A stretch of 64,000 bases of DNA from Geosiphon pyriformis uo1 (Eukaryota > Fungi > Glomeromycota), in assembly GCA_016748015.1 (NCBI GenBank), contig JAAOMT010000786.1, forward strand, positions 623,814-687,813, in the 5' to 3' direction. The position numbers were made by a program, and so were the translations under genes. The notes under the pieces were generated by a model. That model was not told the origin of the DNA and searched no databases. It was given only the letters and a program-made list of their open reading frames with translations. Below, one piece after another: positions 3,198-52,784 of the stretch (position 1 is the stretch's first letter; every line of letters begins with the position of its first letter).

Positions 3198-3279
3198 AAT
3201 AGTTTTTATTATAAAGCAAAACAAATTATATTAATATATAATATTACTTATTTTAAAAATTTAAATTAATTTATAAAAA

Positions 3280-16869: not shown

Positions 16870-17202
16870 TGTTGTTCTGACTGGCCCGAGTGGCTGGTCA
16901 CATGTAGAAAATACATGATTCGTGCCTACTTTAGATTATTTCTTTGATGTATAGCAGTAGGTAGCATTTGGACCTCACTCATTAATTAAAAAAAAAATAA
17001 CTAATAATATTTAAAAAATATATTTTATTATTAAAATTAATATTTAAAAATTATCTGGTTGGTTCTGAGTTGGTGAACTTTCTTGGTAAAGCAAAGTTTT
17101 CAAATAAGATATATATTTGGTTATAATATTATTTTAAATTTTAATATATATATTTTACTAATATTTTTATGAATTTTTAAAAACCAAATATATATATATA
17201 TA

Positions 17203-19044: not shown

Positions 19045-19792
19045 TGATTATTTAGGGTCTTAAAGCAAATAACAAATCCATAACTTGGTGCTCAATTGAT
19101 GATGTTGGTTTCTGAAATATTGTTATCTAAAGGTTTTGGTTAAGTCCTTGGTATAATGGACAGAAATTCAATAGTTGTTTATTTATAGCTTCTCAGAATT
19201 GCAATTCTGTCAATTTTTTTTTTCAGCTTGATGGCCAGTATTCTTCTGATAAGTAATCCATAATTCTTTTATATGTTCTACCCACTCACAGAGGTCTTTT
19301 ACCAGGCAATTTTTGACATCAATAACTCAGTGCTTTAATCCTTTAATCAATTAGTACACAACAAAAAAAATAAAAAAATAAAAAAAAAAAATAAAAAAAA
19401 TAAAAAAATAAGCCAAGGCAATAAAAGTTAGTATTCTGTCAATAGCCATGATCAAGAGCTATTGTTCTAGTGTGGTTAAGTATTAATTTCTATCAACATA
19501 AAGTGTTGATATAGGAGAGTAGATTTGAGATAGTGAATAATTATTTATTTGATATTTGTGATGTAAAAGATTGCTTAGATCAAATCTAAACTGCAAAGTC
19601 TGTTTTTTTTACTTCTAATGCTACCAATATATATACATAATTGAGATTCCTCAATTTTTTACACCAGGAATTCTGAGATTTCTGAAATTTTGCAATTTCT
19701 TTGAGAGGAATTCTGGAATTCTATATTTATTACAGCTATTTTTGATTGGCTAATTTATATGCTAATATACTTCCTATATTCTATGAATAACA
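19045..19792 (-). repeat. 3' LTR of element 1a (outer ~10 bp deleted)
   Basis: Direct repeat of 48146-48969 with an internal deletion in the repeat array. Confidence 0.9.
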
Positions 19793-19806
19793 TTATTTCT
19801 TTTTCT

Positions 19807-20435
19807 TTAATATTGAGCTTTGTCAAGATTTTCTAATTCTAATTCTTCATCTTTGAGTATTTCTTGAACTTTTTTTTCAAGAATTACCTGTGCTATTTTG
19901 TTCTGTAATTCTTCAAATTGAGTGTTGGTTATTTTTCCCATTTAGTTAATAGTAATAGAGTTCATTTCTGGATTGAGTAAGATTCTGGTTGATCTTGAAA
20001 TCTAGTGTGTAGCCAATAAATGGCTCTTGCTTATGTGATCAAATTGTTTTTTTCCACAAATTGTTTCAATTGTTGCAGTATTGTTGAGTCAAATAATTGT
20101 TTTGTTTTATCTGTATACAAGTCTTAAATATTCAAGTATTGTCCCAAATAAAAGTAGCAAAAGTTTTTTGGAAATTGTTGTATCTACCAATTTCAAGTTT
20201 CTATAGTCAACTTTTAATATTGGGTAACTTTTGGTTGTGTTTCTATTGCCAATTTCACTTTTGTAATTATTTTGTTCACAATGTTTTCTGTTTTCTTTTA
20301 TATTTTATCTCGTGGTTTTTTTCTGGTGTTTGTGTATCTGATAGTTTGTTGGTTGATTGTAATTTCGATTTTTTGTTGTTGAATCAGTTAAAAAAGTTGT
20401 TGTGCTAGTAAGTGAATGCCATCAGTAATCTCCAT
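19807..20435 (-). pseudogene. ORF3 of element 1a, unknown function
   Basis: Starts ATG GAG ATT ACT GAT (MEITD) and ends AQY*. Homologous to 32262-32891. Confidence 0.8.
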
Positions 20436-20489
20436 TTTTTTTCTGTTGTCTTTTGTTATGTATACTATATCTTTATATACTTTTTTGGT

Positions 20490-21874
20490 TGTTCAATTTT
20501 ATGTATTTGGTTCAATGATTATAATTGGTTCTAGATCTTGTGGAATCTCATCTGGTTTGACTAATATTCTCTGTACTCCTAATTGTAAAATATTATTGAT
20601 AGATGATGATGCTATATAGTAATATTGTTTTAGTCAATCACTATGTGCTGCTTTGGTTAAGATTTTGTTGTTCAACCTTAATTTATAAGCTCTATTTCCA
20701 AGAATTTCTTCTATGTGAAATGGTCTGTCTCATTTAGGATCAAATTTTCTACTCCATTGTTTTTTTACTTTAATATAATATAAAAGTACTTTGTTTCCAA
20801 TTTTGAATTTAACTGGTTTTTCTGGTAGTTGGTTATTGTGTTTTTTTTTTGTTTTTCTTGTGACTTTTGGATGTTATTAGCTGCTCTTTGCTGTGTGTTT
20901 TCTAGTATCTCTATTAAGTCATATGTTCTTTTCAACAATGTTCTTTGAAAATTTTCTTCTGTTATTGATTCTGTTAGATATGTTTTGACTTCTATCTCAA
21001 CTGATAAGGTTGCTGTTCTACCATATACTAATTTGAATGGTGTTGCTTGTATAGTGTCTTGCTTTATTGTCTGATAAGCAAATAATACTAATGGTATAAT
21101 TAAATCCCATTCGTTCTGGTTTTTTTGACTGATTTTGACAATGGCTTCACACAATGTTCTGTTAAATCTTTCAACTAACTCATTTGTTTGTAGATAGTAT
21201 GGTGATAATAATAGTTTTTTGATTCCAAATCTTTGACTTAATTCTGCTAGTATTCTATTTACAAAGTGAATTCCTTGATCTGATAATAGTTCTTTTAGAC
21301 ATCTATGTTAATATATCAAATCTTGATGAACGAATTTGACAATGGATTCTACATCTGCTCTTTGAATGGCTTTTGCTTCTGGCTATTTTGTGAGATAATC
21401 TATGACTATTGCAATATATCTGTTGTTTCTACTGGTTATTGTTAATGGTCTGACTAAGTCAATTCCAATGTGATCAAATGGTTGTTCTATTTTGATTAGT
21501 CTCAATAGTTTACTGGATTTTGTTCCTCCTTTTTTCTGACAAGCATCACAATTTTGCACATATTAGATAATATCTGGATATATTAATGGCCAATAGTATC
21601 TTTTTCTGGTTCTTTTTATGGTTGTTTTTTTATGAAAATATCCTGCTGTTGGGTCTGAATACATGTTGAATAATATTATCTCTTTCTCTGGTTCTGTGAT
21701 TACTCTGGTTGGTTGATCTGGATTTTTTTTGTTTTTCTGGTAAAATATATTTTGATGGTTGATAAAATATTTTGATTGTTGTTTGATATGGCTTCATTTT
21801 TTTGAAGATAATTTTTCCTTAAACTGCCGAATATTTATATAATATTTAAGTTGTTAGTATTTCTGTATATTCAT
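20490..21874 (-). pseudogene. Integrase ORF of element 1a
   Basis: ATG MNIQKY at 21874; CEAIVKISQK..VLFAY..TPFKLVYGR. Confidence 0.85.
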
Positions 21875-21906
21875 TTTTTGTTATATTTTTTTGGGTTGAA
21901 ATGTTT

Positions 21907-23630
21907 TTAGATTTGTCTCATTCACGACAAACCATTGGCATTCCTATTGTCTTTTCTCTTTTTATAATATACTGTGAATATATATGGTGATAGTACTATT
22001 TTCCATCTTGCATGGTAATCATCTCCAAATTCTTGCTTTTAGATTGCAGTTAATCTCTTGTAATCAGTGTACACATCAAACTTTTGACTCAAGTATTCTT
22101 TCCATTTGGTAATAGCCCAATAGATAGCTAAGTGTTTAAATGCTGAAGTTCTATAGTTTTTTTCAGCTGGATTTAAGCTTTTGCTAGCATATGCTACTGG
22201 ATGTTTTCTTCTATCTGAACTTTTTTGCAATAATACTACTCCTAATGCTTGGCCTGATGTATCAGTGGTAATGATGAATAGTTTGCTGTGATCTGGATAC
22301 ATCAACACTAAAGCTTGAATAAGCTTTCTTCTTAATATATTGAAGACTTCTTGCTGGTTTTTTGTTCATTCATATTTGGTGTTTTTTGATTGAAGCTGGT
22401 ATAATGGCTGAGCCAGTTTAGAAAAATCTTTAATAAAGTGACAATAGTATCCAGCAAATCCCAAGAATGCTCTTAGTTCTGTCAAGTTGGTTGATACTGG
22501 AAAGTTCTTGACCACTTCAATTTTGTCTGGATTTATTTTGATACTATTTTTGTTTACAATATGTCCCAAAAACTTGAGTTCCGTTTTTCCAAAGAAACAT
22601 TTGGTTGTATTTAGCTTTAATCCGGCTCTTCTTAGTCTTTCAAACACTTGTTGGAAATAATGTAGATGATCATTGAATGTTTTTGAGAACATATTAGTGT
22701 TATCCAAATATACGACTACTGATTTTTATAGCAGTTTCATATAGACAATTTCCATCAGCTGTTGAAATGTGGCTGGAGTATTTATTAAACCAAATGGCAT
22801 TACTTCAAATTCAAAGTTTTCTTCCCAAGTTGTAAAAGCTGTTTTCTTCTTGTCTTCTGGTTTCATGATTATTTGCCAATAACTGCTGTCTAAGTTTAAA
22901 GTTGAGAACCATTTTTTTCCTTCAAAAGCATTGAATAGTTCTTGAATTTTTGGAGTTGGGTAGCTATTATTTTTGATTACTTCATTTAATTTCCAGTAAT
23001 CCACACAAAAGTGTACTTTTCCATTCTTCTTACAGACTAGTACTATTGGTGACAACTATGGGCTTATTGATGGCTGAATTAATCCATTGTCGAACATTCG
23101 ATTGATTTCTTAATGAATAATCTCATGGCTGGCTGGTAGTACTCTGTATGTTCTCTGTTTAATTGGCATTGCATCTCCAGTCTTAATTTGGTGTTGGATA
23201 ATGTCAGTTCTGCCAAATTCGTTTTTACTGGCAAAGATGTTATTAAAATTGTTGAATAACATTTTGAGCTGCATATGTTGTAGTGGATCTAAGTTTTTCA
23301 TGTTTATTTGTTCCAATTGTTCTGGTTAGAGCAAATAACATTTGTTTCATCCATATATTGTTTGTGATATAATATCCACATATTCACAAAGTTGTGGAAA
23401 GTCTGGAATGGTGTCTGACAGTTGGTCTTCAATTTCAGTGGTTAAGTATCCAATAGTGGTTCCTTCTGGTATCTTGATGACATTTTTCATGTTGTTGTAA
23501 ATGAGAATTTTGATATAACTGTGGTTCTTAACTGGTATGTGTAGATTGACTAATCCAATTTCTCTTAATTTACAAAGTATTGCTTCTGCCTCAAAAATCT
23601 GAACCTAATTCTTTACTTTTCTCTCTATGG
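21907..23630 (-). pseudogene. RT and RNase H of element 1a
   Basis: SPIVLV..FCVDY, VMPFGLINTPATFQ, YLDN, FLGH, TTDTSG..HPVAYAS, VYTD. Confidence 0.92.
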
Positions 23631-24498
23631 TGTTACTTATAGAAATATAGGAAATATATTAGCATAATTATTAGCCAATCAGAAGTAAGCATAGTAAATG
23701 TGGAATTCCAAGATTCCTCTCAGGAATTGCAGGATTCCAGAAATTTCAGGATTCCCGACAAGGAATTGCAGGATTCCAGAATTCTAGGATTCCTCTCAAA
23801 GGAATTGCAGGATTCCAGGAATTCCAGAATTCCTGTCGTGAAGAATCGGGAAATTGAGGAATCCCAATTATGTATATATAGTGGTAGTGTTAGAAACAGA
23901 AAAGACAGAATTGATACCACAGAATCTTTAGCCAAGAAACAAAATTATCAAATAAATAATTATTCCATATCTCAATTCACTCTCCACTATCAACACTTCA
24001 TGTTGATAGTAATTGATACTTAACCACACTGGAACAATAGCTCTTGATTATGGCTATTGACAGAATACTAATCTGCCAAACCACCTGGGCTTATTTCTTT
24101 TCTTTCTTTATTTTCTTGTATTTTCTTTTCTTTATTTTATTTGATTTGATTGTTGTGTATACTAATTGATTAAAAGATTAAGCACTGAGTTATTGACATC
24201 AAAGATAGCCTGGTAAAAGACCCAAAAATAAGGATAGGATTTTATATATTATCAGATAGCTTACTAGAAAGACACAACTGCCAGACTAAATCTGGCCACC
24301 ACACTGAGAAAGAAATTGGGAAAACAACTTAAGAATACAACCACTATCAACCTTATTGAATCTCTGTCCATTATACAAAAGACTCAACCAAAATCTTCAG
24401 ATAACAATACCTTTAGAACATTATCAACGGAACTAGCTTTAAGCACTAAGTTATGGGTTTGTTATTTAATTCAACAGCCAAAATACTCACCTGTAACA
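23631..24498 (+). repeat. 5' LTR of element 1b
   Basis: Direct repeat of 32905-33772 with inverted termini TGTTAC/GTAACA. CCAAT at ~23675 and TATATATA at ~23873. Confidence 0.97.
23699..23866 (+). repeat. GGAATT(G/C)CAGGATTCC-type tandem array in U3
   Basis: Repeated GGAATTCC/GGATTCC quasi-palindromes between the CCAAT and TATA motifs. Also present in the other 1a/1b LTRs. Confidence 0.9.
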
Positions 24499-24500
24499 TT

Positions 24501-24517
24501 TGGTGCTTCCTGTGAGG
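24501..24517 (+). promoter_or_regulatory. Primer-binding site (possibly elongator tRNA-Met)
   Basis: TGGTGCTTCCTGTGAGG lies 2 nt after the LTR. Element 1a has TAGTGCTCCTTGTGAGG. The tRNA identity is tentative. Confidence 0.8.
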
Positions 24518-24518
24518 T

Positions 24519-27500
24519 ATAATCCTACAGAAAACCAGCACCAACAACACCAAACCAAAAGTGGTAGAATCAGAAACCATAGAAGCAAACCATTTAAAAT
24601 TCGCGAAAGCTTTATTTCAACACTATTGTCAACACTTAGAATTAAACCACAATCATATATCTACTGAATCAGTCTTTAACTTCTACATCAACGAAAAAAT
24701 TTCCTCTTTGTTAGGAACACCAGTGAATACTGAATTAGCCAGGAAAACTTTCTACAGAGAATTAATTCAAAATACCAATCTGCCAACAAATCACAATTTT
24801 GCTTCCATCATTACTGAAATCAACAAAGAAATTGAACATCACATCCAACAAAGATATCCAATTACTTATGCCAATAAAGGCAAAGGGAAACTACAAACAC
24901 CAGCAGTAATACCCAAAAAGATACAACCACCCACTTAGAAGAAAACAAGAATTGAATCACCAACTGACCCATCCTATCACTACACACTGGGAAGTGTCAT
25001 CAATATAACATCAGCAAGTGCGTCCACATCAAATGTAATATCAACATTCGGATGACTCCCATTCCAAAGTAAACAAAGAAAAACAGATCTATTAGGACCA
25101 TATGGCGAATATTTTGAGGGATTTAAATCACAATCATCAATCCCATCAGGAATTTGATCACCACCACCTCAACCAGACTTTGGAACTGCTACTCTGTGGG
25201 AACTATCTGAAGAAGAAGAGGAAAAAGAATTGAAAGATCAAGAATTTATTTACCAAAACCTGATCACTGAAAGCCCGGAAGTTGAAACCCTGAATCTTCA
25301 AGCTTAGCAAAATTTAAATATAGAAAATTTGGAAATCAAAACTCTGAATCAGCAAAGGCAGAACAATCCAAACCCCGAATTAATTAATCAGCAAAACTTA
25401 CCTCTGGTAATTGTCATCAATCAACCACCAATTAATTCAGTAGCCAAACCTATACAGCAGCCATTTCAACTACCACTCCAACAACCAGGACAACAACAAC
25501 AACTGTTTCAATAGCCACCACAACAACCCAACTTAGATCCAATGGCCTATGCACCAATCACAAAACTTGACAACTTTACCGGCAAAGAGGATGATGCTCA
25601 GGTATGGCTGAATGATATAGAAAAAGCCATCGCAGCCAATGAATGGAATGATGCTCAAGCAATGCAAGCCATTCCATACTTTTTTAAGGATACTGCTGAT
25701 TTATGGTACCAGAGCTTGATTAATAAACCACAAGATTTTAATGCCTTCAAAGTGGAATTCTTAAGATACTTCAGCAACAATAACAGCATCAATAGTCTAG
25801 TCAATGCATTCACTACCATAAAACAAGGAGAAACTGAAACAGTCACAACTTACCTGGAATGCTTTCATTAAAACCTACGCCAAATTCAAGCAATTGACGC
25901 CAACTATTTCACAGCACCAAATCAGTTTATCCATGGCCTGTGCAGCAGCATCTTGTAACATGTACGTCCGTTGCATTCAGGTACCCTTCAAGACGTAGTT
26001 ACACGCGCCAGAGATTTTGAATCCACTGAGTCAGAGACTAACCACGCCCAAGCTGTTAATCTAGTAATAAACGGATTATCTAAATTGGATTCCAAATTAG
26101 AGAAGTTTAGTGAATCAATTAATAAGAGATTAAAAGGATACTTAGCTGACAATTACGCCATTTATCAGTCTCCACAATGATGCAATAATCAAAGAAACTC
26201 TAATTATGCCCAAAATCAACCATGTTCATCTTCATCAACCAATCAACAGTGGCAACAGGAAATGTATATCTGCCACTATTGTGGTAAACAAGAACATATT
26301 CAAATTGACTGTCACCAGCGTCTAAATAACCAATGATTGGGAAATCAATATCAAAACCCCGATTGCCAGTTCCAAACTCCGAATCATTATCCAAATTAGG
26401 GTTAAGACCAATATCAAAATAATTACCTGCTAATAACACAGCAACCAATCTATCAACCACCAGTATATCAACCTCCGATTTATCAGCTGTAGCCACAAGT
26501 AATATATCAACCACAGCCACCAATCATCTATCAACCCCAACCAATTTAAACACCACTCCAGAATCCAGCTCAAATGACATCAGGCAACTCTTGATCCAGA
26601 GTCACTCAAAACTGGAGATCGGCGATAGTTGTTTACCAACTGATTCTCAGTTTGCTAAACCCACCATCAGGATCACACACCCAGAATTTGGATACCAGTC
26701 GCATCCAAAACCCAAATTCCCAACACTATTTAAGTCTCCTGGTTAACCCAGAAGATGCCACATCCTACAACATGGAATCCAATCAGCACATACCTCCCAA
26801 CACGATTCCACTAGCAACCATCTCTAGTGACAAATCCCTAGCAGCCATCTTTCCTTTTGAACTCGAAGAAAACACACTGATACCATTATTTAGTAGAGCC
26901 ACCCTCGAAGAAAAACCTATAACAGCAATGTACACAGATGCCAGAGTTGATGGTCACTCCATCAAACTCATCCTAGATAGTGGATCAGCTGGCAGCATAA
27001 TCACAAGACAGCTCATAGATCAATTAGGTTGCCGAGTTGATCGAGCTGCCAGCACTAGAATCATTACTGCCGATGGTGCCACAAAAACACCTATCGGCAA
27101 GATAGATGATTTCCTTATAGAAATTAATAGCATCATAGTACTCATCAAAGTCATAGTAATGGATGCCACCCAATACCAAGCCCTAATTGGTAATGACTGG
27201 CTGTCCAAAACCAACGCCGTGCTCAATTGGACAACCCAAGAGTTAATACTCAGCCAGAATGGAAGACACACATGAGTACCAGCAATATGTGGCCATTTCA
27301 AGGCTACCAACAACATGGTACCACTAATCGACTTTGACAAGAAGAAACTAAAACCTACCTGGAAAGCCTACCAAGTGTTGTGGGCTGATGAAGAGCACAA
27401 TGAACTGCCACCAATACTCTTCTGGGACAACAACAACAAGGGAAAAGGGAAACAAAAGGAAGAACTTACCTGGGAAACTGATGACCTGATATGAACCGAC

Positions 27501-30500
27501 AATAACGAGAGCAAACCGACTTCAAGCTGGGAAAGGGAAGAAGACAAAAAAAATAAAATAAAAGGAAAAGAAAAAGAGACCACTCAAACCACCACTGCTT
27601 ATAAAATCTACACCATACCATAATGATCTACTTATCGTCAATTTAAGCTTATATGTGTTGATTGTGACAAGAAATTGTTGTCAATGGATGCATGCTGTGG
27701 GGACGATGAGAAATATTCAATGGCAACTAGGTTCTATTGCCACCCATGTGTTCTTAAATGCTTTGGAAGACCAAAACAAGTAGGGAAATAGAACAACCAG
27801 TTATGCTTAGCTTGTGAAGAGACTCTATTGGACAAAGGAATATGGCATGACATTCCTGGATGTGAAGGAACATGCAATGTATTGTGTCAATACACGATTC
27901 TGATTAACAACTGGATTAAAAAGGGGACACCAATTGAAGCCGCTTGGCAAAGAACAGTGTGACAATTAGACAGTTGTCCACATGACGATAACGAAATTTG
28001 GAAAATGACAACCACAAAAATTGAAGGCACATCGCCAGAAGAAATCTGGACAATTAAAAACAACCCACCAGAATCCATTGAGCTTGACTGGGACGCAAAG
28101 CCAGTCATAAATTTTCTAGAACCAGAAGAGTTCCATAAATACTACCAAAACTTGGCACCTACTAGAGAAGAGCAAGAACAATGGCTAGTACAGTTAAATA
28201 CAAGACTGTGTTACCATTGTTTAATTTCCAGTGACTTTGAATATTGTGATGATTGTGACCTTATTTACAATCCACCACCATGCATGATCTACTCGATCCC
28301 TGAAGAAGAAGAACCAATCAGCAGCTGTGCATCAGAATCAGAATCGCTGATCAATCGTGATCCAGACTCTAATGATAACAATGAAAACACTGGTTCCAGC
28401 TCCATTCAAAATGGCAATAATGACGAAAACAATTCAGACTCAGATTCAAATCCCGATTTAAACTATGAACAATATATTGCACTATTAGATCTCTCCAAGA
28501 AACAAGAGTTGAAATGGTATAGTGACAATAGGGAAGGTATTATGCCAGAACGTGTACATGATACTAATGCAGAGTTTGATCTGAGGTATCCAGGAAAAGA
28601 GATCATCAAATTGGAGCCACATTTACGCATCTGCATTGATCTGAAAATAGCACTAAAAATTCTGGCAACAACAATGGTTCAATTAGCATCTAGGAGTAGT
28701 CTAGCAAAAAGAGGAATTAATATAAGAGGAGGAATAATTGACGCAGGATATATAGGAAATATCATCGCAATGTTATAAAATGACTCAGAAAAGGCCTATA
28801 TAATAGAATCCAATGAAAAGATAGCACAGGCAATATTCCTGCCTCTGGTTAGAATAGCTCAGTTAGTATCAGTGGGAAAGAGGGAGAAATTAGGAATAAC
28901 AGCGAAAGGAATACAGAGATTTGGATTGATGGGTAAAATAGATGTACCAGTTAATATGGCAAAGGAAAAAATTGTTGGCCAAGGAGAAATTATCTCAACC
29001 GGTCAAGCTATTTCTATTCCACCATATAGCCAGTACATGTTAGCAATAGAAAGGAAGGAAAAGAAGCAAGAACAGATTTTTGAAGCTGAAGCAAACCTTT
29101 GTGAATCAGGAGAGATTGGACTGATCAATTTCCACATACCAGCCAAGAGCTATAGCTGCATAAAAATTCCCATCTACAACAACACTGGCAATATCATCAA
29201 CATACCAGAAGGAACTACCATCAGATATTTAACCACAGAAATAGAAGACCAACCACCAAACCTCATTCCAGACTTTCCACAACTTTGTGAATATGTTGAC
29301 ATCACATCACAAACAATCTATGGACGAGACAAATGTTATTTGCTCCAACCAGAACAATTGGAACAAATGAACATAAGAAACTTAGATCCACTCCAATGTA
29401 TACAGCTCAAGATATTACTCAACAATTTCAACGACATCTTTGCCAGCGAAAATGAGTTTGGCCAAACTGACATTATCCAGCATCAGATCAAGACTGGAGA
29501 TGCAATGCCAATCAAACAAAGAGCATACAGAGTGCTGCCAGCCAGTCACAAAATCATTTGTCAAGAGATAAACAGAATGCTTGACAATGGGCTAATTCAA
29601 CCATCAATGAGCCCATGGTCGTCACTAGTGGTACTCATCTATAAGAAAAATAGAAAAATCCGGTTTTGTGTAGACTACAGGAAACTTAATAGTGTAACTC
29701 GTGGAGACAGTTATCCAACTCCACAAATACAGAAATTATTCGATGCTTTCAGTGGGAACAAATAGTTCTCAACATTAGATTTGAACAGTGGTTACTGGCA
29801 AGTAGCCATGAATCCAGCTGACAAAGAGAAGACAGCATTTACTACTAGAGAAGGGAATTTTGAATTTGAAGTGATGCCATTTGGCTTAACCAATGCCCCA
29901 GCAACTTTCCAATGGCTAATGGAAATTGTTTATACTGGTTTATTGTGGAAATCAGTAGTTGTATACTTGGACAACACCAATGTATTCTCAAAGACATTTG
30001 ATGATCATCTTCATCTTCAACAAGTGTTCAAAAGACTAAGAAAAGCAGGACTAAAGTTAAATGTGACAAAGTGCTTCTTTGGCAAGACAAAACTCAAATT
30101 CTTGGAACACATAGTCAACAAAGATGGCATCAAAACAGATTCAGAGAAAATAGAGATAGTAAAGAACTTTCCAGTGCCAACCAATATAACAAAACTGAAA
30201 TCATTCTTGGGATTCACTAGCTACTATTGTCATTTTATCAAGAACTTTTCCAAGATAGTGCAGCCACTCAACCAACTGCAAAACAAAAATACGAAATATG
30301 AATGAACAGAAAGTCAACAAGAAGCTTTTGATATTCTGAGAAAAAAGCTCATCCAAGCTCTAGTACTGATCTATCCAGATTACAGCAAACCATTCATCAT
30401 CACCACTAATGCATCTGGCCAAGCATTGAGAGCAGTATTATCTTAGAGGACTGGACAGCAGAGAACATCCAGTAGCATATGCCAGCAGAGATTTAACACC

Positions 30501-30762
30501 AGCTGAAAAGAACTATGGAACACCGGAACAAGAACACTTAGCAATATACTGGGCCATCATGAAATAGAAAGAATACTTGAGCCAGAAGTTTGAAGTATAC
30601 ACAGATCACAAGGGATTAACATCACTCCAAAAACAAGAATTTGGAGATGGAAGACAGTCAAAATGGAAAATGGCACTCACACCATACAATTATACTATAC
30701 ATTACAAAAAAGGAAAAGACAATGGAAATGCTGACGGTTTATTGTAAATAAGACAAATCTAA
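24519..30762 (+). pseudogene. Gag-PR-Cys-rich domain-dUTPase-RT-RNase H polyprotein of element 1b
   Basis: ORF fragments from 24561 to 30305 are all in one frame. Capsid FTGKEDDAQVWL, knuckle CHYCGKQEHIQIDC, protease LILDSGSAGSII, dUTPase, RT (VMPFGLTNAPATFQ, YLDN) and RH. One 2-bp deletion at ~30450. Confidence 0.92.
28540..28935 (+). pseudogene. Trimeric dUTPase domain within the polyprotein
   Basis: Motifs AEFDL, ASRSSL, GIIDAGYIG, EKIAQAI and G..RFG correspond to dUTPase motifs I-V. Confidence 0.92.
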
Positions 30763-30825
30763 GAACATTTCAACCCAAAAATATAATAAAACCAGAACAA
30801 TACCAACAAAAAAATACAACAAAAG

Positions 30826-32207
30826 ATGAACATACAAAAATATTAACAATTGCAACATTATCTAAACACTCAACAGTTCAAAAAGAATTTATCTCAAATG
30901 GAATGAAAGAGTATCAAACAACAATCAAAATATTTTATCACTCACCAAAATATACTTTATCGGAAAAATAGAAGGGATCCAGATCAACCAACCAGAGTAA
31001 TTACGGAGCCAGAAAAAGAGACAATATTATTCAACATGCACTCAAATCCAACAGCAGGACATTTTTACAAAGAAGCAACCATGGAAAGAACCAGAAAAAG
31101 ATACTATTGGCCATCAATGTACCCAGACATCATTCAATATGTTCAAAATTGTGATGCTTGTCAGCGAAGAGGAGGAACAAGACCCAGTGAACCATTAAGA
31201 CCAATCAAAGTGGGACAACCATTTGACCGTATTGGAATTGATTTAGTCAGACCATTAACAATTACCAACAGAGGAAACAGATACATAGTGGTAGCCATGG
31301 ACTATCTCACTAAATGGCCAGAGGCAAAAGCAATTCAAAGAGCGGATGCAGAATTCATTGCCGAATTCATTCATCAGGATTTGATTTATCAACATGAATG
31401 TCCAAAAGAATTATTATTAGACCAAGGAACTTATTTTGTGAACAAACATTAACAGAATTGAGCCAAAGATTCGGAATCAAGAAACCATTATCATCACCAT
31501 ACCATCCACAAACCAATAGATTAGTAGAAAGATTCAACAGAACATTGTGTGAAGCAATAGCTAAACTCAGCCAAAAAAACCAGAACAATTGGGATTTGTT
31601 AATACCATCAGTACTATTTGCTTATCGGACAATAAAGCAAGATACTACACAAACAACACCATTTGAATTAGTATATGGTAGAACAGCAACACTACCAGTA
31701 GAAATAAAAGTCAGCACATACCCAACCAAACCAATAACAGAAGAGAATTTCAAAGATACATTGTTGAGAAAAACATATGACTTAATGGAAACATTGGAAA
31801 ACAACCAAAGAAGAGCAGCTGATAATATTTAAAAGTTACAAGAAAAACAGAAAAAAAGACACAATAGTTAACTACCAGACAAACCAGTTGAATTCAAGAT
31901 TGGAGACAAAGTATTACTATATTGTACCAAAGCAGAAAAACAATGGAGTGGAAAATTCGACCCCAAATGGGACGGACCATTTCACATAGAAGAAATTTTA
32001 AGAAATGGAGCTTACAAATTAAGATTGAATAACAAAATTTTAACCAAAGCAGCACATGGAGATCGACTAAAGCCATATCGTAACATCACATTACCATCTA
32101 CCAGTAATATTCCACAATTAAGAGTACAGAGAATACTAGTCCAACCAGATGAGATTCCATGAGATCTGGAACCAATTGTTATTATCAACAACAACATGTT
32201 AAATTGA
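30826..32207 (+). pseudogene. Stand-alone integrase ORF of element 1b
   Basis: ATG MNIQKY; HHCC (H..GH..YYWP..CDAC); DDE core (GIDL, DQG, ERFN); GPY/F module WDGPF. No chromodomain is evident. Confidence 0.9.
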
Positions 32208-32261
32208 TCAATTAAAAGAATATATAAAGATATAGTAGACATAACAGGAAATATCAAAAAA

Positions 32262-32891
32262 ATGGAAATTACAGACAACATTCACATATTAGCACAACAA
32301 CTCTTTCAATTAATCCAACACCAGAAAATGGAGATTACAATCAATCAACAAACCATTCAATATCAAGATACTAGAAAGACATTGCAACTCAGAACACTGA
32401 AGAAAACTGAAAATATGGTGGACAAAATCATGGTGAAAGTAAAATTAGCAATAAAAGAATCGACAAAAGAGTCACTATATCAAGAGTTAACTAAAGAAAC
32501 TTGGAATTGGTAGATACAACAATTTCCATGAAACTATTGTTATTTTTACTTGGGACAACATGTAAATATCCAGAATCTATATACGGATAAAACAAAGCGA
32601 TTATTCGACAAAAGAATACTACAACAATTAGAACATTTTGTGGGAAAGAACAACTTATCTACACAAGCCCGAGCCATATACCAAATACACACAGCATTTC
32701 AGGATAAACCAGAAATATTGCTCAACAGAGCAATGGATATGGTTACCAGTAATCAATTGGGAAAAATTACCAATGCTTAATTTGAAGAATTACAGACCCA
32801 AATAACACAAGTAATTCTCGAAAACGAAATCCAGGAAATACTTTAAGAGGGGGAATTACATGAGTTGGATTTCGATGAAGCTCAATATTAA
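32262..32891 (+). pseudogene. ORF3 of element 1b (~209 aa), unknown function
   Basis: One 630-nt frame from ATG to TAA, interrupted only by transition-type stops. Homologues are present in all four elements. Confidence 0.82.
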
Positions 32892-32904
32892 AAGGAGGGA
32901 ATAA
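32891..32904 (+). promoter_or_regulatory. Polypurine tract
   Basis: AAAGGAGGGAATAA immediately before the 3' LTR. Confidence 0.85.
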
Positions 32905-33772
32905 TGTTACTCATAGAAATATAGGAAATATATTAGCATAATTATTAGCCAATCAGAAGTAAGTGTAGTAAATGTGGAATTCCAGGATTCTTCTCAGGAA
33001 TTGCAGGATTCCAGAAATTTCAGGATTCCTGACAAGGAATTACAGAATTCCAGAATTCCAGGATTCCTTTCAAAGGAATTGCAGGATTCCAGGAATTCTA
33101 GGATTCCTGTTGTGAAAAATTGGGGAATTGAGGAATCCCAATTATGTATATATAGTGGTAGTATTAGAAACAGAAAAGACAGAATTGATACCACAGAATT
33201 CTTAGCCAAGAAACAAAATTATCAAATAAATAATTATTCCATATCTCAATTCACTCTCCACTATCAACACTTTATGTTGATAGTAATTGATACTTAACCA
33301 CGCTGGAACAATAGCTCTTGATTATGGCTATTGATGAAATACTAATCTGCCAAACTGCCTGGGCTTATTTCTTTTTTTTCTTTATTTTTTTGTATTTTTT
33401 TTTCTTTATTTTATTTGATTTGATTGTTGTGTATATTAATTGATTAAAAAATTAAGCACTGAGTTATTGACGTCAAGGATAGCCTGGTAAAAGACCCAGA
33501 AATAAGGGTAGGATTTTATATATTATCAGATAGCTTACCAGAAGGGCATGACTGCCAGACTAAATCCGGCCACCATACTGAGAAAGAAATTGAGAAAACA
33601 ACTTAAGAATACAACCACTATCAATCTTATTGAATCTCTGTTCATTATACAAAGGACTCAACCAAAACCTTCAGATAACAATACCTTCAGAACATCATCA
33701 ACGGAACTAGCTTTGAGCACCAAGTTACAGGTTTGTTATTTAATTCAACAGCTGAAATAATCACCTGTAACA
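32905..33772 (+). repeat. 3' LTR of element 1b
   Basis: 868-bp direct repeat of 23631-24498. Confidence 0.97.
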
Positions 33773-36700
33773 ATGGTTATCATGTATTGATTATATGGTG
33801 GAATGGAAATTGATTGATGAGTGGAGATAATTTTTCCCTTGTCAACAATTTTTTTTTCTGCCATATTAACTGATACATCTATTCTACCCATTTATTCAAA
33901 ACCCTGTATTTTTTTAGCTGTGATCCCTAATTCTTCTCTGTTTCCCATTGACACTAACTGAGCTATTTTTATCAGAGGTAGAAATATTGCCTGTGCTATC
34001 TTTTTGTTTGGCTCTATAATATAGGCTTTTTCAAAGTTATTCTGTAGTATTACAATGATGTTTCCTACATATCCTGCATCAATTATTTCTCTTCTGATGT
34101 TGATTCTCTTTTTCACTAAACTACTCCTAAATGCTAGTTGAATTATAGTTGTTAAAATTTCCAGTACTATTTTGAGATCCAGGCATGTGCATAAATGTGG
34201 TTCCAATTTGATGGTGTCCTTTCTTGGATATCTCAAATCAAACCTGGTATTGGTATTATGTACACATTCTGGTATAATGCCTTTATTGTTGTCACTATAC
34301 CATCTGAGTTCCTGTTCCTTGAAAAAATCAGAAAGCATGATGTATGTTTCAGGATTTGAATCAAAATTCAGATCACTATTATTTTCTTTGCCATATTGAG
34401 CAAAGCTAAAACTGTTGTTTTTATTATCATCATTGTCAGAGTTTGAATTGGAATTGAAAGTTGATTCCAATTCTGCTGTGCAGTTGCTAATTGGTTTTTC
34501 CTCTTCTGGAATTGTGTAGATCATGCATGGTAGTAGATTGTAAATAAGGTCACACTTATTACAATATTGAAAATCACATGGAATTAAACAGTGGTTACAT
34601 AGTTAGGTATTAATTTTTTCTAAATATTGTTCTTGTTCTTTTTGAGTGGATGCTAATTCTTAGTAGTGTTTGTGGAATTGTTCTGGATCCAAAAGATTTA
34701 TGACTAGTTCTGAGTTTCAGTTAAGTTCTATAAGTTCTGGAGAGTTATTTTTTATTATCCTGATTTCCTCTGATGACACGCCTTTGATTTTGGTGAGTGC
34801 CATTTGCCATATTTTGTTATCATTATGTGGACAACTGTCTAGACATTTTACTGCTTTTTTCTAGGTGGCTTCGATTAATGTTTTTTTTCTTACCTAGTCA
34901 CTTATTAAGATCATATACTGACATGATTCATCACATGTTTCTCTTCTCCCAGGAATGTCATTCCATATTTCTTTGTTAAAGAGAGTTTTGCTGCAAGCCA
35001 AACATGATTTGTTGTCTCATTTTTCTTGTCTTTTTGGTCATCCAAACCATTCAATGTTGCATGAATGGCAATAGAATTTAGTTGCTGTCTGCCATTTTTC
35101 ATTGTCACTACAGTATGCATTCATTGTGGACAATTTCTTGTCACAGTCAATGAATATTAATTTTGGTCAGCAATAGTTAGATAGTGGTGGTATGGTATAA
35201 ATATAAGGAATATGAGTGGCTGCAGTAATTAGAACTGGCTCTTTTTCTTTTCCTTTTGTCTTTTTTTCTCACTCCTAAGTTGATAATTTGTCCAGATTAT
35301 TGTCAGTTTCTCAGGCTTGGTTGGTATTCTAGATAAGTTCTTTTTTTTGTTTTCTTTTTCTGTTGTTGTCCCAGAAGAGTATTGGCAGTAATTTATGGTG
35401 GTCATTTTCAGCCCATAATACTTGATAGGCTTTCCAAGTAGATTTCTTCTCTTTTTCCTTAAACTCGATAAGTGGTGCTGTCATGTTGGTAGTTTTGAAA
35501 TGGTCACACATGGCTGGAACACATGTGTGTTGACTGTTCTGGCTAAGTTGAAGCTCTTGCGTGTTCCAATCAAGTGTTATGTTGGTTTTAGACAGTCAAT
35601 CATTACCAATGAGTACTTGGTATTGAATGGCTTCTATGACTAATATTTTGATTGACACAATGATGCTATTGACTTCTATAGGAAAGTCATCAATCTTGCC
35701 AATTGGAGTTTTGGTCACTCCATTAGCAGTGATGATTCATGCACTAGCAGTTCAATCAACTTGGCGACTTAATTGGTCTATGAATTGTTTTATAATGATG
35801 CTGCCAGCTGATTTATTGTCTAAGATTAGTTTGATGAATTGGTCATCAACTTTGGCATCAGTGTATATGATGGTAATAGATTTTTTTTCGAGAGTGGCTC
35901 CACTAAATAATGACATGACTAACAGTTCCTCAAGTTCAAATGGAAAGATGGCATTTAGTGATTTGTTCTCTGTGATGGTAGCTGGTAGAATATTGTTAGT
36001 GGGTGTTAGAGTGTAATTGGTTTTTTGGTTGTTGGATGGGACATTTTCTGGGATTACTAGAAGACTTAAATAGTTCTGAGAATTTGGGTTTTGGGTGTAC
36101 CCAACTCCTGAACTCTGCTGGCATGATTCTAATAGATAATCTAATGAACTAGGAATTGGTTGATAAACCACCATTGCCAATCTCCAGTTTTAGGTAACTC
36201 TCAATCTAGGGTTCTCTGATGTCATTTGAGCTGGATTTAATGTTGGTGTTTGAACTACAGGTGTCTGATAAATTATTTGTGGGTTGATATATTACTTGTG
36301 GCTGTGGTTGATAGATTAGGATTTGATATATAATTGGTTGATAAATAGACTGCTGCATTATTAGCAGGTAAGTAGGTTGATATTGATCTTGATTTGCATA
36401 ATGATTCGGTATTTGAAGTTTGTAATCAGGATTTCTATATTGATTTTTTGATTGTATATTACTATAAAAATGGCAGTTAGCTTGGATATGGCCTTGTTTA
36501 CCACAGTTGTGGCAGACATGCATTTCTGGCTGCCACAGCTGATTGAATGATAATAATGGACATAACTGATTTTGGAAACAATTCGCATTTTCTGAATTAT
36601 TGCATCATTGTAGTGGTTAATAAATTGTGTAATTGTCAGCTAAGTATCTCTTGATTTTCTGATTGATTGAATTACTGAATTGCTTTAGTTTGGAATCCAA

Positions 36701-37199
36701 ATCAAATAATCTATTCATTACTAGATTTACAACTTGTGCATAATTAGCTTCTAATTCAGCTAATTCAAAATCTCTGGTGCATGTAACTGTATTTTGTAGG
36801 TTGCCTAGATGTAGTGATTGTATGTATTGCAGGATGTTACTGTGTAATCTGTGAATAAACTGATTCAGGATCTGGGCTGTGGTAAAATAATTGGCATTGA
36901 TGCTTGTATTTGGTGCAAATTTTGATGGAAACATCTCAAGTAAGTGGTAACTGCTTCAGTATCTTCCTGTTTGATGGTGGTAAAGGTGTTGGCCAAGCAA
37001 TTAATGCTGTTGCTATTACTAAAATATCTTAAAAATTCCAATTTAAATGCATCAAATGTTTGGGGTTTCTGAGCTAGGCTATGATACCACAAGTTGGTGG
37101 CATCTTAAAGAAAATTGGGGATTGCTTAAAGAGCTCTGATGTCATTCCAGTTATTGGTGGTGATGGCTTTGACAATATCATTGATCCATGTTTGGGCAT
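33773..37199 (-). pseudogene. Element 1a polyprotein middle piece (Gag, PR, Cys domain, dUTPase)
   Basis: CHNCGKQGHIQANC, LILDNKSAGSII, RFDLRYP..RSSL..IIDAGYVG..KIAQAI. Confidence 0.9.
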
Positions 37200-38151
37200 T
37201 GTTACTGGAGGTTTTTGGTCTCTTTTCTTGAATGTTGTTAATGTTAATTTGCTGTGAATTCACATTCTCAGGAAATAGTTGGACCTCCAGTAACTGAATT
37301 TATCTTTAAATTATCTCTTATAATTTGAACTGCTGGGCTTATAAGTGGAATGGCCAATTCTGTGCCAGTTATTTTATGTAGTTATGTTGTAGTAAACGTC
37401 AACTCTTTTCCAGGAATTGCTTGTCTGAAAGCTCACTAAAAATTGTGTAGTTATTTTGCTATGAAAATCAACTCTTCTACAGGAATCTCGTCTATAGGCT
37501 ACCCTAATGATTGTAATAAGAAAAATAAAAGAAAATAAAAGAAATGTAAAAGAAATAGAATTTTGTCAAGAGAAACGTTTTCTATCCAGGCCTGAAGTCA
37601 CTAACAGTTTATTGAAATTGGTAGCTAATTAATTTTAAAACATTAGTTGTGTTGAGGGAATTTCAAGTGTAATAATTTAAGAATTTGGTTTTTGAATATT
37701 TAATTTTTATTTGATTTTGTAAAAGATAATTTGTTTCAATTAAGATATCTAACATAAGATACTATGGTAAGATACTATAAGAAGATACATTTTCTTGAAG
37801 AAAAAAGCTCTTTTTTTATACAACTTTTTGTAGTACTAGTCTTTAAACTTGTACTTTTCTTTTTGCTATAATTTGGGTGAACTAAAGATACATTTCGGCA
37901 AACTACAAATTATTTCACTGAACTATTGATTATTTCGGCCAATTTTCATTAATTTCGGCAAATTTTAACTATGTTAAATAGTTCAGGATATTGTGTAATT
38001 TAATCATCTTAATTTTTAGAGTACAAATCGGATTATTGATTGAGTAATGATTTTTGATAATTTGATTAAATAATAAGTAATAATCGAAATAATAATAATA
38101 TATGCTAATTAATAATAGGAATTATGAAGATAATTTTATGTTAATTAATAG

Positions 38152-38859
38152 CTAAGATTCTACTGGTAACATAATCTTCTCCTCAAAACTGAGCTTTATC
38201 AAAGTCCAAGCACTATCTGTAATATTAAAATAGTGGTCCAAGATAATTAAAGTAATCTGGTCTAAAAATTGTTGAAATTTTAGTTCTGTGAGCTTTCCAA
38301 TGTATTGAATCTTTATTGGATGAAGTATTGGGTTTTGTAAGACGTTTTTACAAGTGTTAAATAAATCATAGAGTCTAAATGCTGCTCTAAGTTTATAGCA
38401 AATGTTTGTTGGTCCAGCTGTTGTCTTAAATTCATTGTGAATTTGTTTTTGTATAGCCTCAGAAGTAATGTTGGTTGCTTCAAGTTCTAGTTTTCATTTA
38501 TAAAGTGTTTTTTCAATATGAAAATATCTATATATAAGAGTATGTTCATTGTTCTGTTTATTGAGAAATAGTAGAAGTTTTTGTTGCATTGTGGCATTTG
38601 ATAGAATGTCAATAGAGGCAGATAAAAAGTTCTCTTTTAGTGTTTGCTTCAAAAGTTTTGGTAATTGATTTTCAGAGTAACTTTTTGTTTTTCTTCTATA
38701 GGGGTGATAATTCTGAGAATTATTTACTACTGGAGCTGTGATTTCTTTTTGAATGTAATTAATTTGACTTCTATTAATCATTATAAATAAGTCAAAAAGT
38801 GTTTTCAAAGCTAACATTAATTTTTGGGATATTTGTTGAATATTTCGGGGAATAATCAT
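38152..38859 (-). pseudogene. ORF3 of element 2a
   Basis: MIIPRNIQQISQKLMLALK..YRYFHIEK..RAAFRLYDLF..IGKLTELKF. Homologous to 50511-51230. Confidence 0.82.
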
Positions 38860-39022
38860 GATAAAAATGACTAATTAATAAACAAAATTTGAAAAAAAAT
38901 AAAGAAAATTATTTTTGGATATAAGATTTTTATTTGTTTTTGGTTTTGAATATTTCTTCTAATTATTTACTATTTTTGATTTATGTTTTGTGTATTTTAA
39001 AGGAGTTTGTGAAAATGTTAAA

Positions 39023-40407
39023 TTAAGTGTTCAAGTTTGGTTGTTGTTCTATTATAATTATTGGTTTTAAATTTTGGAGAATATCTTCAGGATTAATTAA
39101 AAGAGAATGTGTACCAATTTGTAGAATTAATGGTTCAAGATTGTTTTTGGAATGATAGTGTTTCAATCAATTTCTATGTGCAACTTTTGCTAGTACTTTG
39201 TTATTAAGTCTTAACTTATATGATCCATTGCCTAGAATTTCGTAAATATAAAATAGTCCATCCTATTTATGTTCAAATTTTCTACTTTACTGTTTTTCAG
39301 CCTTTATTCTGTATAAGAGAACTTTATTTTCAACTTTAAATTTGTTGGTAACTGGTGGCAGTTTGTTGTCATGTTTTTCTTTTTGTAGAGCTTGGAAGTG
39401 TTCAATATGAGTGACTGCTATGTATCTTTTTTCTTTCAATGTACTAAGAAGTGTGTAAGCTTTTCTTTGGAGTGTTTTTTGAAAGTTTTTTTCATTGATT
39501 AGTTGCACTGGGTATGTTTCCACTGTGAAATTAATTGGTAATATTGCTGTCCTTCCATAAGTAAGATCAAATGGTGTGTGTTTTATAGTATCTTGTTTTA
39601 GTGTTCTGTATGCTAGTAACACTGATGGAATAAAAATATTCTATTTTTGCTCAAAATTTGTTGAGACTTTGGCTAATGATTCACATAATGTTCTGTTAAA
39701 ATGTTCTACAAGTCTATTTGTTTGGGGGTGATAAGGTGATAAAAAAAGTCTTTTAACATTAAATTATTCACAAATTTCTTGTATTAGGTTGTTCACAAAA
39801 TGTGTTCTTTAATCAGATAAAAGCTCAATTGGGCATTCATGTCTACAAATAATGTCTTCATAAATGAAATTTGCTACTGATTTTGCATTTGCTTTTTGAA
39901 TGGCTCTAGCTTTAAGCCATTTGGTGAGATAATCTACTGCAACTACAATATAGCAATTTTCTTGAATTGTGATAAGTAGTAGTCTGACTAAATCAATTCC
40001 AACTCTGTTAAAAAATTGTCCAACTTTGATTGAATTTAAAGGTTCTGTGGAGCAAGTTTTTTCTCTTCTTTGACAACTATCACAAGATTCTACATATTGT
40101 CAAATGTCTTTTTGCATGTGAGACCAAAAATAATGTTTAAGAGTTCTTTGGATTGTTCTATCTCTTCCCAAGTGTGCTGAAGATAGATCTGTGTACATGT
40201 TATATAGGATTGTTTTTATTCATTTTCTTGTACTAATCTGAATAATTGGTTTGGGTTTCTACAATTTTTGTAATAAATTTTGTTGTGATGTATGAAATAT
40301 TGTCTGAATTGGTGTTGTAATTAATGTTTTTTACTTGGAAACCAATTTTTTGGTATGGTAAAAGTTTCCAAATAGTTTTTAAGATTGTTGTAATTTCTGG
40401 GATCTAT
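39023..40407 (-). pseudogene. Integrase ORF of element 2a (start ATG>ATA)
   Basis: (M)DPRNY start; LLAYRTLKQDT..TPFDLTYGR. Colinear with 51353-52738. Confidence 0.85.
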
Positions 40408-40470
40408 TATTGTTTTGTTGTTTTGTTGTTTTGTTGGTAGTAGTAAGTTATAGTAGATTTGTTAATAGTG

Positions 40471-43400
40471 TTAATTTTATCTTATTCTTAAAAGACTATT
40501 AACATTAGTGTGTAATTTTCTTGGTTTGTGGTGTACAATATATTTGTAATCTGCTAGAAAATCATTTCATTGAGACTGTTTGGCACTTTGTTTAGTTTTC
40601 TTTTTATTAAGCCATTTGAGACCAATATTGTTAGTTATAATGTCAAATTCTTTTCCATCCTTCAAATATTGTTGAAAATGTTTAAGAGCCCAAATGACTG
40701 CAGCAGCTTTTAATTCAGTTGAGTCATATTTGAGTTCTGTTGGCTTGAGTGTTCTGCTAGCATAGGCAATGACTTGCTCCTGGCCATTTTCATCTAATTG
40801 TGATAGGATGGCACCAAAAGCTATGTGTGAAACATCAGTGGCTAGTTGGAACTATTTGTTAAAGTCTGGGTATGCAAAAACTGGAGCTGTTGTCAATTTT
40901 GTTTTAAGGGTTTCAAAAACTTTCTGTTGTTCTTTAGTCTATTAATATGGCATGTTTTTGTTGGTAAGATAGTTAAGTAGTTTGGCAATTTCTAAGAATT
41001 TTTTTATGAATTTTCTATAGTAAGAGACTAATTCTACAAATTCTCATAGCTCTGTGGTATTTTTGGAAGTTTGAAAGTTTTTGACAACACTGATTGTTCC
41101 AGAATTTGGTTTGACTCCATTTTTGCTAACAATGTGTCCAAAAAAGATTAAGCTTGTTTTTCCAAAGTGACATTTCTCAATGTTTAACTTTAATCCTGCT
41201 TTCCATAATCATTGAAAAACTTCTCACAAGTGAATAAGATGAGCTTCAAAGCTTGGTAAGTATACATTAGTGTTATCAAGATAAACAACTATTAATTGCC
41301 ATAAGAGTCCTTCATATACAATATTCATGAGTTATTGAAATGTTGTTGGTGCATTGCAGAGTTCAAAAGACATAACATTGAAATTATAGTTCTCTTCTTA
41401 AGTAGTGAATGCTGTTTTGGATCGATTTTTTGGGTCCATTTTGACTTGTTAGTATTTACTTTCCAAGTCTAAAGTTGAGAAGAACTTGGCTTTTTCTAAG
41501 GCATTCAGCATATCATCAATTCTTGAAAGAAGGTAAGCATCTTCAATTGTCATGCTGTTGAGCTGATAATAATCTACACAGAATCTGATTTTTTCATTTT
41601 TCTTTTTAACAAGAACTATTGGTGAAGTCTAAAGACTTCTTGATGATTAAATCAATTCGTTATTAAGCATTCTTTGGATCTCTTCTCTGATAAATTGGTG
41701 GCTAGCAGGTAAAACTCGATAGACTTGTTGTTGTTTTGGTGGAGCATCTCCTGTGTGGATCTAATATTGAACAATATCAGTTTTTCCAAGATTATTGTTG
41801 TCTTTTGCAAATATATCTGCAAATTCAGCTATCAATTGCTTCAATTGTTTTTGTTGTTGGGGTTCTAAGAGACCCATGTTGATTTAAGAGAGTTTTTCTT
41901 CTAAAAAATGATAGTTTTCAGTGATAGGAATGATGTTTAGATTAGGTAATAGGGTATGTCTTACAATTTCGATGAAATTAGAGACAATTTGGAAGTTTTC
42001 ATCTTGAAAGATATTGCTGTGTATGATTCTAATTTCTAATTTATTTAATAAGACAATAGAATAATTATTGGGGTTATAGAATGTAACTTGAAATTTTTTC
42101 ATTCCTTTAGGAATATAAACGTTTAGAATTGAAATTTCATGCTTTAAACAGATTTGTTCATTGGATTCAAAAATTTGTTGGGTAGTAGTGGGTTTTAAGC
42201 AAGTGTAAATTTCGTGATGTTTACCAAAAAGTGAAATGGTAATTGGTTGGAGAAGTTGAAGAATCTGGTGAGATTCATTCTGTACATTGAAAGCTATGTT
42301 TACTGGCACTGTAAATCGTCTAATTGAACCAAAACTTTGAGTTTTTTTTTCACTTTTTTCTAATTGTTCTCTGTTTTTAACTGATTATAAACCCGAAATG
42401 TTGATTAAGAGTAGGTAAATTGCTTGGGCAATCTTTTCAGCATGTTCAATTATGAATGGTTTGTCTGTTTTATTCTGTAACATGATAGTAATGTTTCTAG
42501 TATATCCTGTATCTATGACTTCTCCTCTAACATTGATTTCTTTGCTTGCCAATAATGATCTGGATGCAATTTGAATCATTGCTCCAGGTGAAATTTTAAA
42601 AGTGATTCTGAGATTGATTTTTGTTAAAAACTTTGGTTGGAGAACCAAAGTATCTTTTTCTGAATATTTTAGATCATATTCAGCATCAATCTCATGTGCT
42701 TTTTCTGGTCTGATTTTTTGGCCATGGTTGTCAAAATATTTAAGTTGTAAGGGTGATTGATTTTCAAGAAGATAGATAAGGGTGGTTGGTAGTTCTTCTA
42801 CCAGTTCAGATACTCCAAATTCGATTTCATTTTCATCATTCTCATCTGGCAGGGGAATGCTAAGAGCATAACATTCTAAACACCATTGGTTATCACAAAG
42901 CATAACACATTCTTTATATAATTGAATGTTTATTTGCTTTAATTATTAAATTTGAGTTTCTTTGGTTGGGTATGTATAACTTGCAATTTGGTGGTAGATT
43001 TCTACTTCATTTTCATAATCAAATCCAGCTAATTCCATAGTATACTCAATATATTTAGCTTTTTTTATTTGGCAGACATCTTTTTGAGTGGCTCTATTAA
43101 TTAATGTCATTGCTAAGTCAAAAATTATTTCAGCATCATGAGAGTAGTAATAGAGTTTATTGAAGGCACTGTTGTATGCTGCATTAAATAGTGTTCCTCT
43201 TCTGACTTTTTCTGAAATTGATAGAGCATATTGACATGTTTAATTACATACTCCTCCTCTCATTACAACATCAATCCAGTTGTATTCTTCTGATAGTATA
43301 TCTCCACATGTGAGACAAGGAATGTTGTCTTATTTTCCACTTCTTTTTGGAGATCCAAATCGTTCTCTATGGCATGTTTTACAGAAATAGCAGGTGCAGA

Positions 43401-51230: not shown

Positions 51231-51352
51231 TATAAGAGATTTGAAAATAAAAGAAAATTATTTTTGGTGTATGGGTTTTTATGTTATTTTTGTTTTGTTT
51301 TTGTGAGATTGTTTCTAAATTATAATGATATAACTATAATAATAAATTTAAA

Positions 51353-52738: not shown

Positions 52739-52784
52739 TGTTTGTTGTTTTGTTGTTAATTCAAATGGGTGTTGTTTTTATGTT

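Follow-up and report, generated by a model that had tools for sequence, protein, structure and literature searches.

What is encoded behind the integrase of the LTR retrotransposons in this 64,000-nucleotide stretch of Geosiphon pyriformis DNA (the window), where a further reading frame, ORF3, recurs in every element: is it a working gene of the elements, and what might its product do?

Four nested elements and their third reading frame

By comparing the window with itself we found four related LTR elements belonging to two families, two of them lodged within a third and one beside this nest (Table 1). The LTR termini are TG...CA, with the LTR ends decayed in B and D, and PBS-like and polypurine tract (PPT) sites are present; the 4-base target duplications are exact at A and D and carry two mismatches at C. 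The domains follow the order gag, protease, dUTPase, RT, RNase H, integrase (IN), the dUTPase lying between protease and RT, and by these features and this order the host elements are Ty3/gypsy LTR retrotransposons. Since the two LTRs of a pair differ by 6.5-11%, all four elements are old and decayed.

Table 1 Features of the nested elements, with positions counted along the window
Feature	Position	Strand	Remarks
Element A	LTRs 23631-24498 and 32905-33772	+	Family 1; sits within element B
5' LTR of A	23631..24498	+	6.5% different from 3' LTR; 4-base target duplication
PBS-like site, then gag, protease, dUTPase, RT, RNase H of A	24499..30755	+	Decayed
Integrase of A	30903..32207	+	Own ATG, separate ORF; decayed, frameshifted; domains confirmed on the L001 homologue
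IN-ORF3 spacer of A	32208..32261	+	54 bases, A-rich, from integrase stop to ORF3 ATG; in frame with IN
ORF3 of A	32262..32891	+	Family 1; 209 codons; 4 internal stops
Polypurine tract of A	32890..32904	+	Start overlapped by the ORF3 stop
3' LTR of A	32905..33772	+	
Tandem array in 3' LTR of A	32977..33110	+	39-base unit, 3.5 copies; first part of LTR, upstream of a TATA-like box
Element B	19045..48969	-	Family 1; split by A and C
Pieces of B	about 19045-23628, 33778-37189, 47095-48969	-	
ORF3 of B	19807..20435	-	Family 1; about 209 codons; 8 internal stops, one frameshift near 19983
Element C	37200..47088	-	Family 2; sits within element B
ORF3 of C	38152..38859	-	Family 2; 235 codons; 1 internal stop; through PPT into 3' LTR
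Element D	49558..59446	-	Family 2; beside the A/B/C nest
ORF3 of D	50511..51230	-	Family 2; 239 codons; 4 internal stops; through PPT into 3' LTR
LTR arrays	23703-23834, 32977-33110, 48766-48897, 50233-50304, 59137-59201		

ORF3 lies behind the integrase in 4/4 elements, and a profile search of all six frames recovered no further significant copy in the window. A first-pass annotation, made from the letters of the window, had described a frame of 209-239 amino acids between IN and the PPT of all four elements, each with its own ATG after an A-rich spacer. The presence and the lengths stand, but none of the four copies is an open frame. Likewise, the placement between IN and PPT is correct for A and B, whereas the family 2 frames cross the PPT and stop about 20-30 bases inside the 3' LTR. 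An ATG start is found in all four, and the spacer before it is A-rich in A and B but longer, with a T-rich tract at its end, in C and D. In family 1, where the frame stops at the PPT, a conserved pre-LTR motif is read in another frame than in family 2; because both families read through this motif, the conserved-looking C-terminal tails partly reflect a DNA signal. The family 1 start has an alternative, an in-frame Met 10 codons upstream, in 30/82 annotated models with the start motif; this codon is ATA in elements A and B. Intact versions of ORF3 are annotated in G. pyriformis (P0004, 209 aa; P0154, 221 aa; P0192, 239 aa), and the copy in element A is 90% identical to P0004.

Two other coding stretches of these elements were noted in passing. 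In both families, protease and dUTPase are separated by a long stretch rich in cysteine (about 27300-28500 on the forward strand and 55200-55800 on the reverse strand), of which one piece, taken from element D, has no Pfam match. The gag of element D has about 190 codons without a Pfam match ahead of its capsid-like portion (57875-58453, reverse strand).

Selection on ORF3 and its relatives

The selection acting on ORF3 was estimated as dN/dS by the pairwise Nei-Gojobori method with transition weighting (kappa 3), on two pairs only, A/B over 197 codons and D/C over 222 codons. The ratio was 0.27 for A/B (95% bootstrap 0.17-0.39) and 0.41 for D/C (0.29-0.57), well below 1, so that the near-neutral outcome named beforehand as speaking against a conserved gene did not appear. 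In the same pairs, RT-RNase H gave 0.25 (A/B) and 0.28 (D/C) and integrase 0.42 (A/B) and 0.37 (D/C); ORF3 is under purifying selection similar to that on RT and IN. As controls, six frames laid over the LTRs gave 0.82-1.48 and shifted ORF3 frames 0.86-2.35, and varying the transition weight from 1 to 5 kept ORF3 at 0.15-0.47, with upper bounds of at most 0.66. By part of the protein, the ratio was 0.25 for the N-terminal region, 0.26 for the core, 0.46 for the linker and 0.78 (0.37-1.96) for the tail. The estimates also count the neutral changes that accumulated once the elements had inserted and are therefore higher than the true ratio, which a rough correction places at 0.16 and 0.32 for the two pairs. 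ORF3 is almost certainly a real, functional gene of the elements.

The ORF3s of the two families, which had been aligned by eye in the first-pass annotation, share 22% identity and are homologous along nearly their full length. Their Smith-Waterman scores (107 for A vs C, 100 for A vs D) were reached by 0/1000 shuffles in either case (maxima 63 and 66), and a profile-profile comparison of family 1 with family 2 (hhalign) returned a probability of 87.6 and an E of 3.5e-6 over 189 columns, which supports the earlier alignment. Sequence searches gave 125 matches for the ORF3 of A and 201 for that of C, and all 120 listed for each query are hypothetical proteins of G. pyriformis; hundreds of proteins annotated as hypothetical in this species are thus pieces of ORF3 and not host genes. 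When 1.84 billion representatives were searched with a profile, 115 matched, and the 10 that were looked up comprise 8 from G. pyriformis, among them three more divergent ORF3 subfamilies, and 2 from metagenomes; one more metagenome relative came from a further search. The ORF3 lineages are 20-41% identical to one another, and the family may resemble a multicopy hypothetical family of other Glomeromycotina.

In a scan of metagenomes, at least 2 of 592 candidate stretches were confirmed as carrying ORF3, both from soil (L001 and L002). L001 is a near-intact element in which RT-RNase H is followed by a stop, an integrase that has its own ATG and a single internal stop, about 316 bases of spacer, and an intact ORF3 that reads into the LTR. 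It is 55-56% identical to A and D in RT, 54-63% in integrase and 28% in ORF3. No relatives of ORF3 were found in viral contigs and no matches in plasmids, and the window itself contains no Rfam match.

A predicted helical protein and its nearest comparisons

A hydropathy measure revealed no membrane segment in 10/10 ORF3 proteins, the highest 19-residue values being 0.27-1.33; the proteins contain 0-2 cysteines each, and their pI is 7.0-9.3 in the Geosiphon copies and 5.2-5.9 in three soil proteins. The only Pfam row naming an env protein is a single chance-level one (PRRSV_Env, E 0.53), and there is no significant fold match to viral fusion proteins; the conclusion drawn at first sight that ORF3 is not env is upheld, and there is no confident match to another known ORF either. 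An AlphaFold2 model of one member, P0278, built on an 84-sequence alignment, has a mean pLDDT of 80. In it the N-terminus is predicted to form a helix and a beta-hairpin (residues 7-38, pLDDT 60-70), which a basic linker, flexible and disordered, connects to a compact core of helices (residues about 82-200, pLDDT about 88-96). Together with the selection and the lack of a membrane segment, this mostly helical model agrees with the soluble helical accessory protein that had been proposed. Prediction of a homodimer, made without an alignment, scored 0.01.

Scans of ORF3 against Pfam, PHROGs and NCBIfam gave nothing at the curated cut-offs, and sequence searches of the PDB gave importin-5 at E 0.02-0.2, HincII at E 0.2 and nothing else. 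Foldseek against viral and PDB libraries, the check that had been suggested for a known match, returned nothing at E 0.001, and among 48,161 chains VIA-align found no Z of 5 or above, the best being 4.7 as compared with the 7-8 that is a typical best for unmatched models. The ORF3 protein can therefore be described as having a predicted all-helical core without a significant Pfam, PDB or viral-fold match. Below significance, the DNA-binding domains of ParB, Spo0J and KorB and a fragment of a sigma factor stand among the top 50 of the 48,161 chains (Z 3.3-3.9, rmsd 3.1-5.0, 59-92 residues aligned), tied with unrelated helical proteins. The commonest weak Pfam family is DUF1016_N (PF17761), which appears for 9/84 members, all from family 2, with a best E of 0.0028; FtsQ (37/84) and phrog_23683 (34/84), both unrelated, are commoner among the weak rows, so that this recurrence means little. 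We compared ORF3 with a profile of YhcG, which carries this domain, made from 64 proteins (63 of 81 fetched loci that passed a length filter, and the query). The two profiles align over 55 columns with a score of 19.4 (P 0.03), above 60/60 column shuffles and level with the best of 60 block shuffles (19.37), while hhalign assigns a probability of 1.6% and HMM cross-searches reach E 0.04-0.05 at best (sets of 64 and 144 proteins). The likeness to DUF1016_N and to the ParB/KorB domains thus amounts to a helical segment, a similar residue pattern over these 55 columns and low Z rows, with scores that are not significant. The YhcG N-terminal domain is itself described, in the pertinent passage of PMC1189080, as helical and of unknown function.

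One could also speculate that ORF3 is a viral coat or nucleocapsid gene that was captured, a remnant of env, or a passenger without function. The ESM Atlas features bear on the first of these: the top match (0.94) is an uncharacterised, mostly Mucoromycota cluster, which may mean capture from a wider fungal family, and a closterovirus coat protein follows at 0.93. However, the Atlas recognition of 2186 lies below the tool's own mark of 2300, with 156/256 features in common, a query with P0004 gave no usable match, and filamentous-virus coat proteins of plants are absent among the fold-search matches listed. A remnant of env is at odds with the absence of a membrane segment, and selection as strong as that on RT and IN rules out the neutrality expected of a passenger. 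We regard this whole group of origins as very unlikely.

Third ORFs that are not env form an established class in LTR retrotransposons, as the available extracts of two studies set out (PMC5408684; PMC11728184). According to these extracts, the ORF3s of bdelloids and the 3' aORFs of plants resemble the Geosiphon frame in being extra, lineage-specific ORFs after pol, some of 200-240 residues, and several bdelloid lineages have a dUTPase; the bdelloid ORF3s are usually made from spliced messages (PMC5408684). The Geosiphon ORF3 differs from them in its fungal host, the separate integrase ORF and the overlap with the PPT region, and none of the signatures GDSL, DEDDy, transmembrane or fusion-protein was detected in it. 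A survey of Glomeromycotina transposons records the expansion of LTR elements in G. pyriformis, and its passages on Geosiphon, gypsy, ORFs and LTRs make no mention of extra ORFs (PMC11952901). In the literature that we searched, which was not exhaustive, so that an earlier account may exist, there is no description of the ORF3 family or of the split-integrase layout in fungi. ORF3 is thus an apparently undescribed protein family in an unusual three-ORF layout, the class of third ORFs itself being known. Two other elements were considered and set aside: Odin elements, whose supposed separate integrase is not borne out in the available part of PMC9040795, and Troyka elements, which differ in termini, target duplication and hosts as far as the extract of PMC12440569 describes them.

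A separate integrase and the possible roles of ORF3

For the ORF3 product we tentatively favour a regulatory role, in which it would bind nucleic acid and control expression of the element that encodes it. This predicted function draws on the position of the frame at the 3' end over the PPT, a location typical of retroelement regulators, on family-specific tandem arrays of the LTRs, on a motif that recurs in both the LTR and the spacer of L001, and on the weak DUF1016_N and ParB leads. Set against it, no fold or family match is significant, and the pI of the soil proteins is acidic. The array in the LTR of element A may offer protein-binding sites. LTR repeat arrays are common sites for host factors. 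In L001, a 7-base motif occurs three times in the LTR (3117-3713), twice in the spacer before ORF3 (2140-2455) and nowhere in 2,800 coding bases; 0/3000 shuffles of the spacer reach two copies, for a motif that was picked after looking. It possibly marks an internal promoter. The count was made in L001 only, and no such sharing was noticed in the spacers of A-D.

Arrays that lie upstream of a TATA-like box and are specific to the family were also noted more generally, with units of 39-40 bases in family 1 and of 20 bases in element D.

If ORF3 is such a regulator, it would have a short transcript of its own, from an internal promoter or through splicing, and its protein would enter the nucleus and bind the LTR repeat arrays or the genomic RNA, much as foamy-virus Tas or CERV of the Cer1 element do. 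This binding would promote expression of the element and could include shielding the LTR from silencing by methylation. Tas, which binds LTR and internal promoters (PMC517496), resembles ORF3 as a small soluble accessory gene (Tas/Bel1) near the 3' LTR; it belongs to another class of element, no homology was detected, and it serves as a working analogy for the putative binding of LTR and internal promoters by ORF3. CERV, which exports the genomic RNA of Cer1 in C. elegans (PMC10309623), is the case of a gypsy element that encodes its own regulator of RNA expression, but its mRNA is spliced and its protein has three predicted domains, as compared with the one helical core and small N-terminal module of ORF3, a distinction drawn from its description. 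LTR elements make up 41% of the G. pyriformis genome, according to the passages available of PMC11952901, and an element-encoded regulator or anti-silencing factor, if true, could help to explain the expansion of LTR elements in a heavily deaminating genome.

The decay of the elements also bears on a different role, in which ORF3 would act as a counter-defence whose targets are a host protein or small RNAs, bound with no recognition of the element's sequence. Across all four LTR pairs, the differences comprise 264 transitions vs 8 transversions, and 59/100 CpG sites have changed; as other C contexts changed at 18-24%, deamination outside CpG is strong as well. Such heavy attack by the host would be in keeping with a counter-defence, and the fast divergence of ORF3 between lineages would suit a conflict role. 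Within families, however, the pairwise estimates show purifying selection and give no hint of positive selection, and no likeness to a known suppressor was found; we consider this role improbable.

The layout of the integrase bears on two further possibilities. Integrase is a separate ORF in 5/5 elements (A-D and L001), all of them ORF3 carriers, which raises the question of how it is made and packaged. From the end motif of RNase H to the start of IN there are 57-176 bases, in phases 0, 1, 0, 1 and 2, so that all three phases occur. The co-occurrence of ORF3 with this split layout, proposed as a check in the first-pass annotation, holds in each of these five, including L001 as the sole outside element long enough, within a set of relatives that all carry ORF3. 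As background, some gypsy groups are described as having a motif ahead of the zinc finger of integrase (PMC2836005).

The junction before integrase was seen to be a CAA-rich spacer of variable length and phase (30755-30903 in element A, its counterparts in B-D, and L001:772-798), the start codon of IN having decayed in C.

A partner of integrase is one role that this arrangement might suggest: ORF3 could bring IN into particles or steer integration, acting in trans like the C-terminal IN domain of other gypsy elements. A separate IN ORF would need another route into particles, Pfam detects no chromodomain on the L001 integrase, and the short spacer of family 1 leaves ORF3 in the frame of IN, a partial annotated model (P0084) even running from IN to ORF3 without a stop. 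An outright IN-ORF3 fusion in family 1 was judged unlikely, because family 2 and L002 likewise have the end of integrase at the position of the family 1 stop; fusion is therefore not the rule, and in L002 an extra ORF separates IN from ORF3. ORF3 is moreover 22-28% identical between lineages in which integrases are 54-63% identical, a rapid divergence for a fixed partner, if not a decisive argument. On balance a partnership with integrase seems unlikely.

The extra ORF of L002 (L002:425-811) has 128 codons and no Pfam match.

The same layout could be served by a factor resembling caulimovirus TAV (P6), likewise encoded by the last ORF of a polycistronic reverse-transcribing element. This was the leading suggestion of the first-pass annotation, and such a factor would allow translation to resume at the integrase ORF further downstream. 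Restart or internal initiation would fit the series of three ORFs, the spacers that are short and rich in CAA, and the favourable start contexts ahead of IN. TAV is much longer, more than twice the length of ORF3; no link to it in sequence or fold was seen, and its domains are absent among the best 25 of 68 Pfam families for the 84 ORF3 members. With short spacers, ribosomes can also reinitiate when no dedicated factor is present, and the layout could be explained equally well by splicing or by internal promoters, so that we think a TAV-like activity hardly probable.

Returning to a regulator of the element's own expression, one could extend it to a class of 'complex' fungal gypsy elements. 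Besides gag-pol, these would possess a free-standing integrase and a regulator that recognises specific sequences, has an undescribed helical fold and is produced from an internal promoter; it would bind lineage-specific LTR arrays and either switch the element on or block its methylation. This fuller scheme is speculative and in its entirety unlikely; if true, it would represent a foamy-virus-like circuit that evolved independently in fungi.

Outside the four elements, the window contains the decayed remains of another kind of retroelement, probably LINE-like, in which an RRM domain and RNase H are recognisable (10230-17000, forward strand), fragments related to it at the start of the window (1-3200, reverse strand), and a tandem repeat with a 114-base unit in 2.4 copies (60635-60913).
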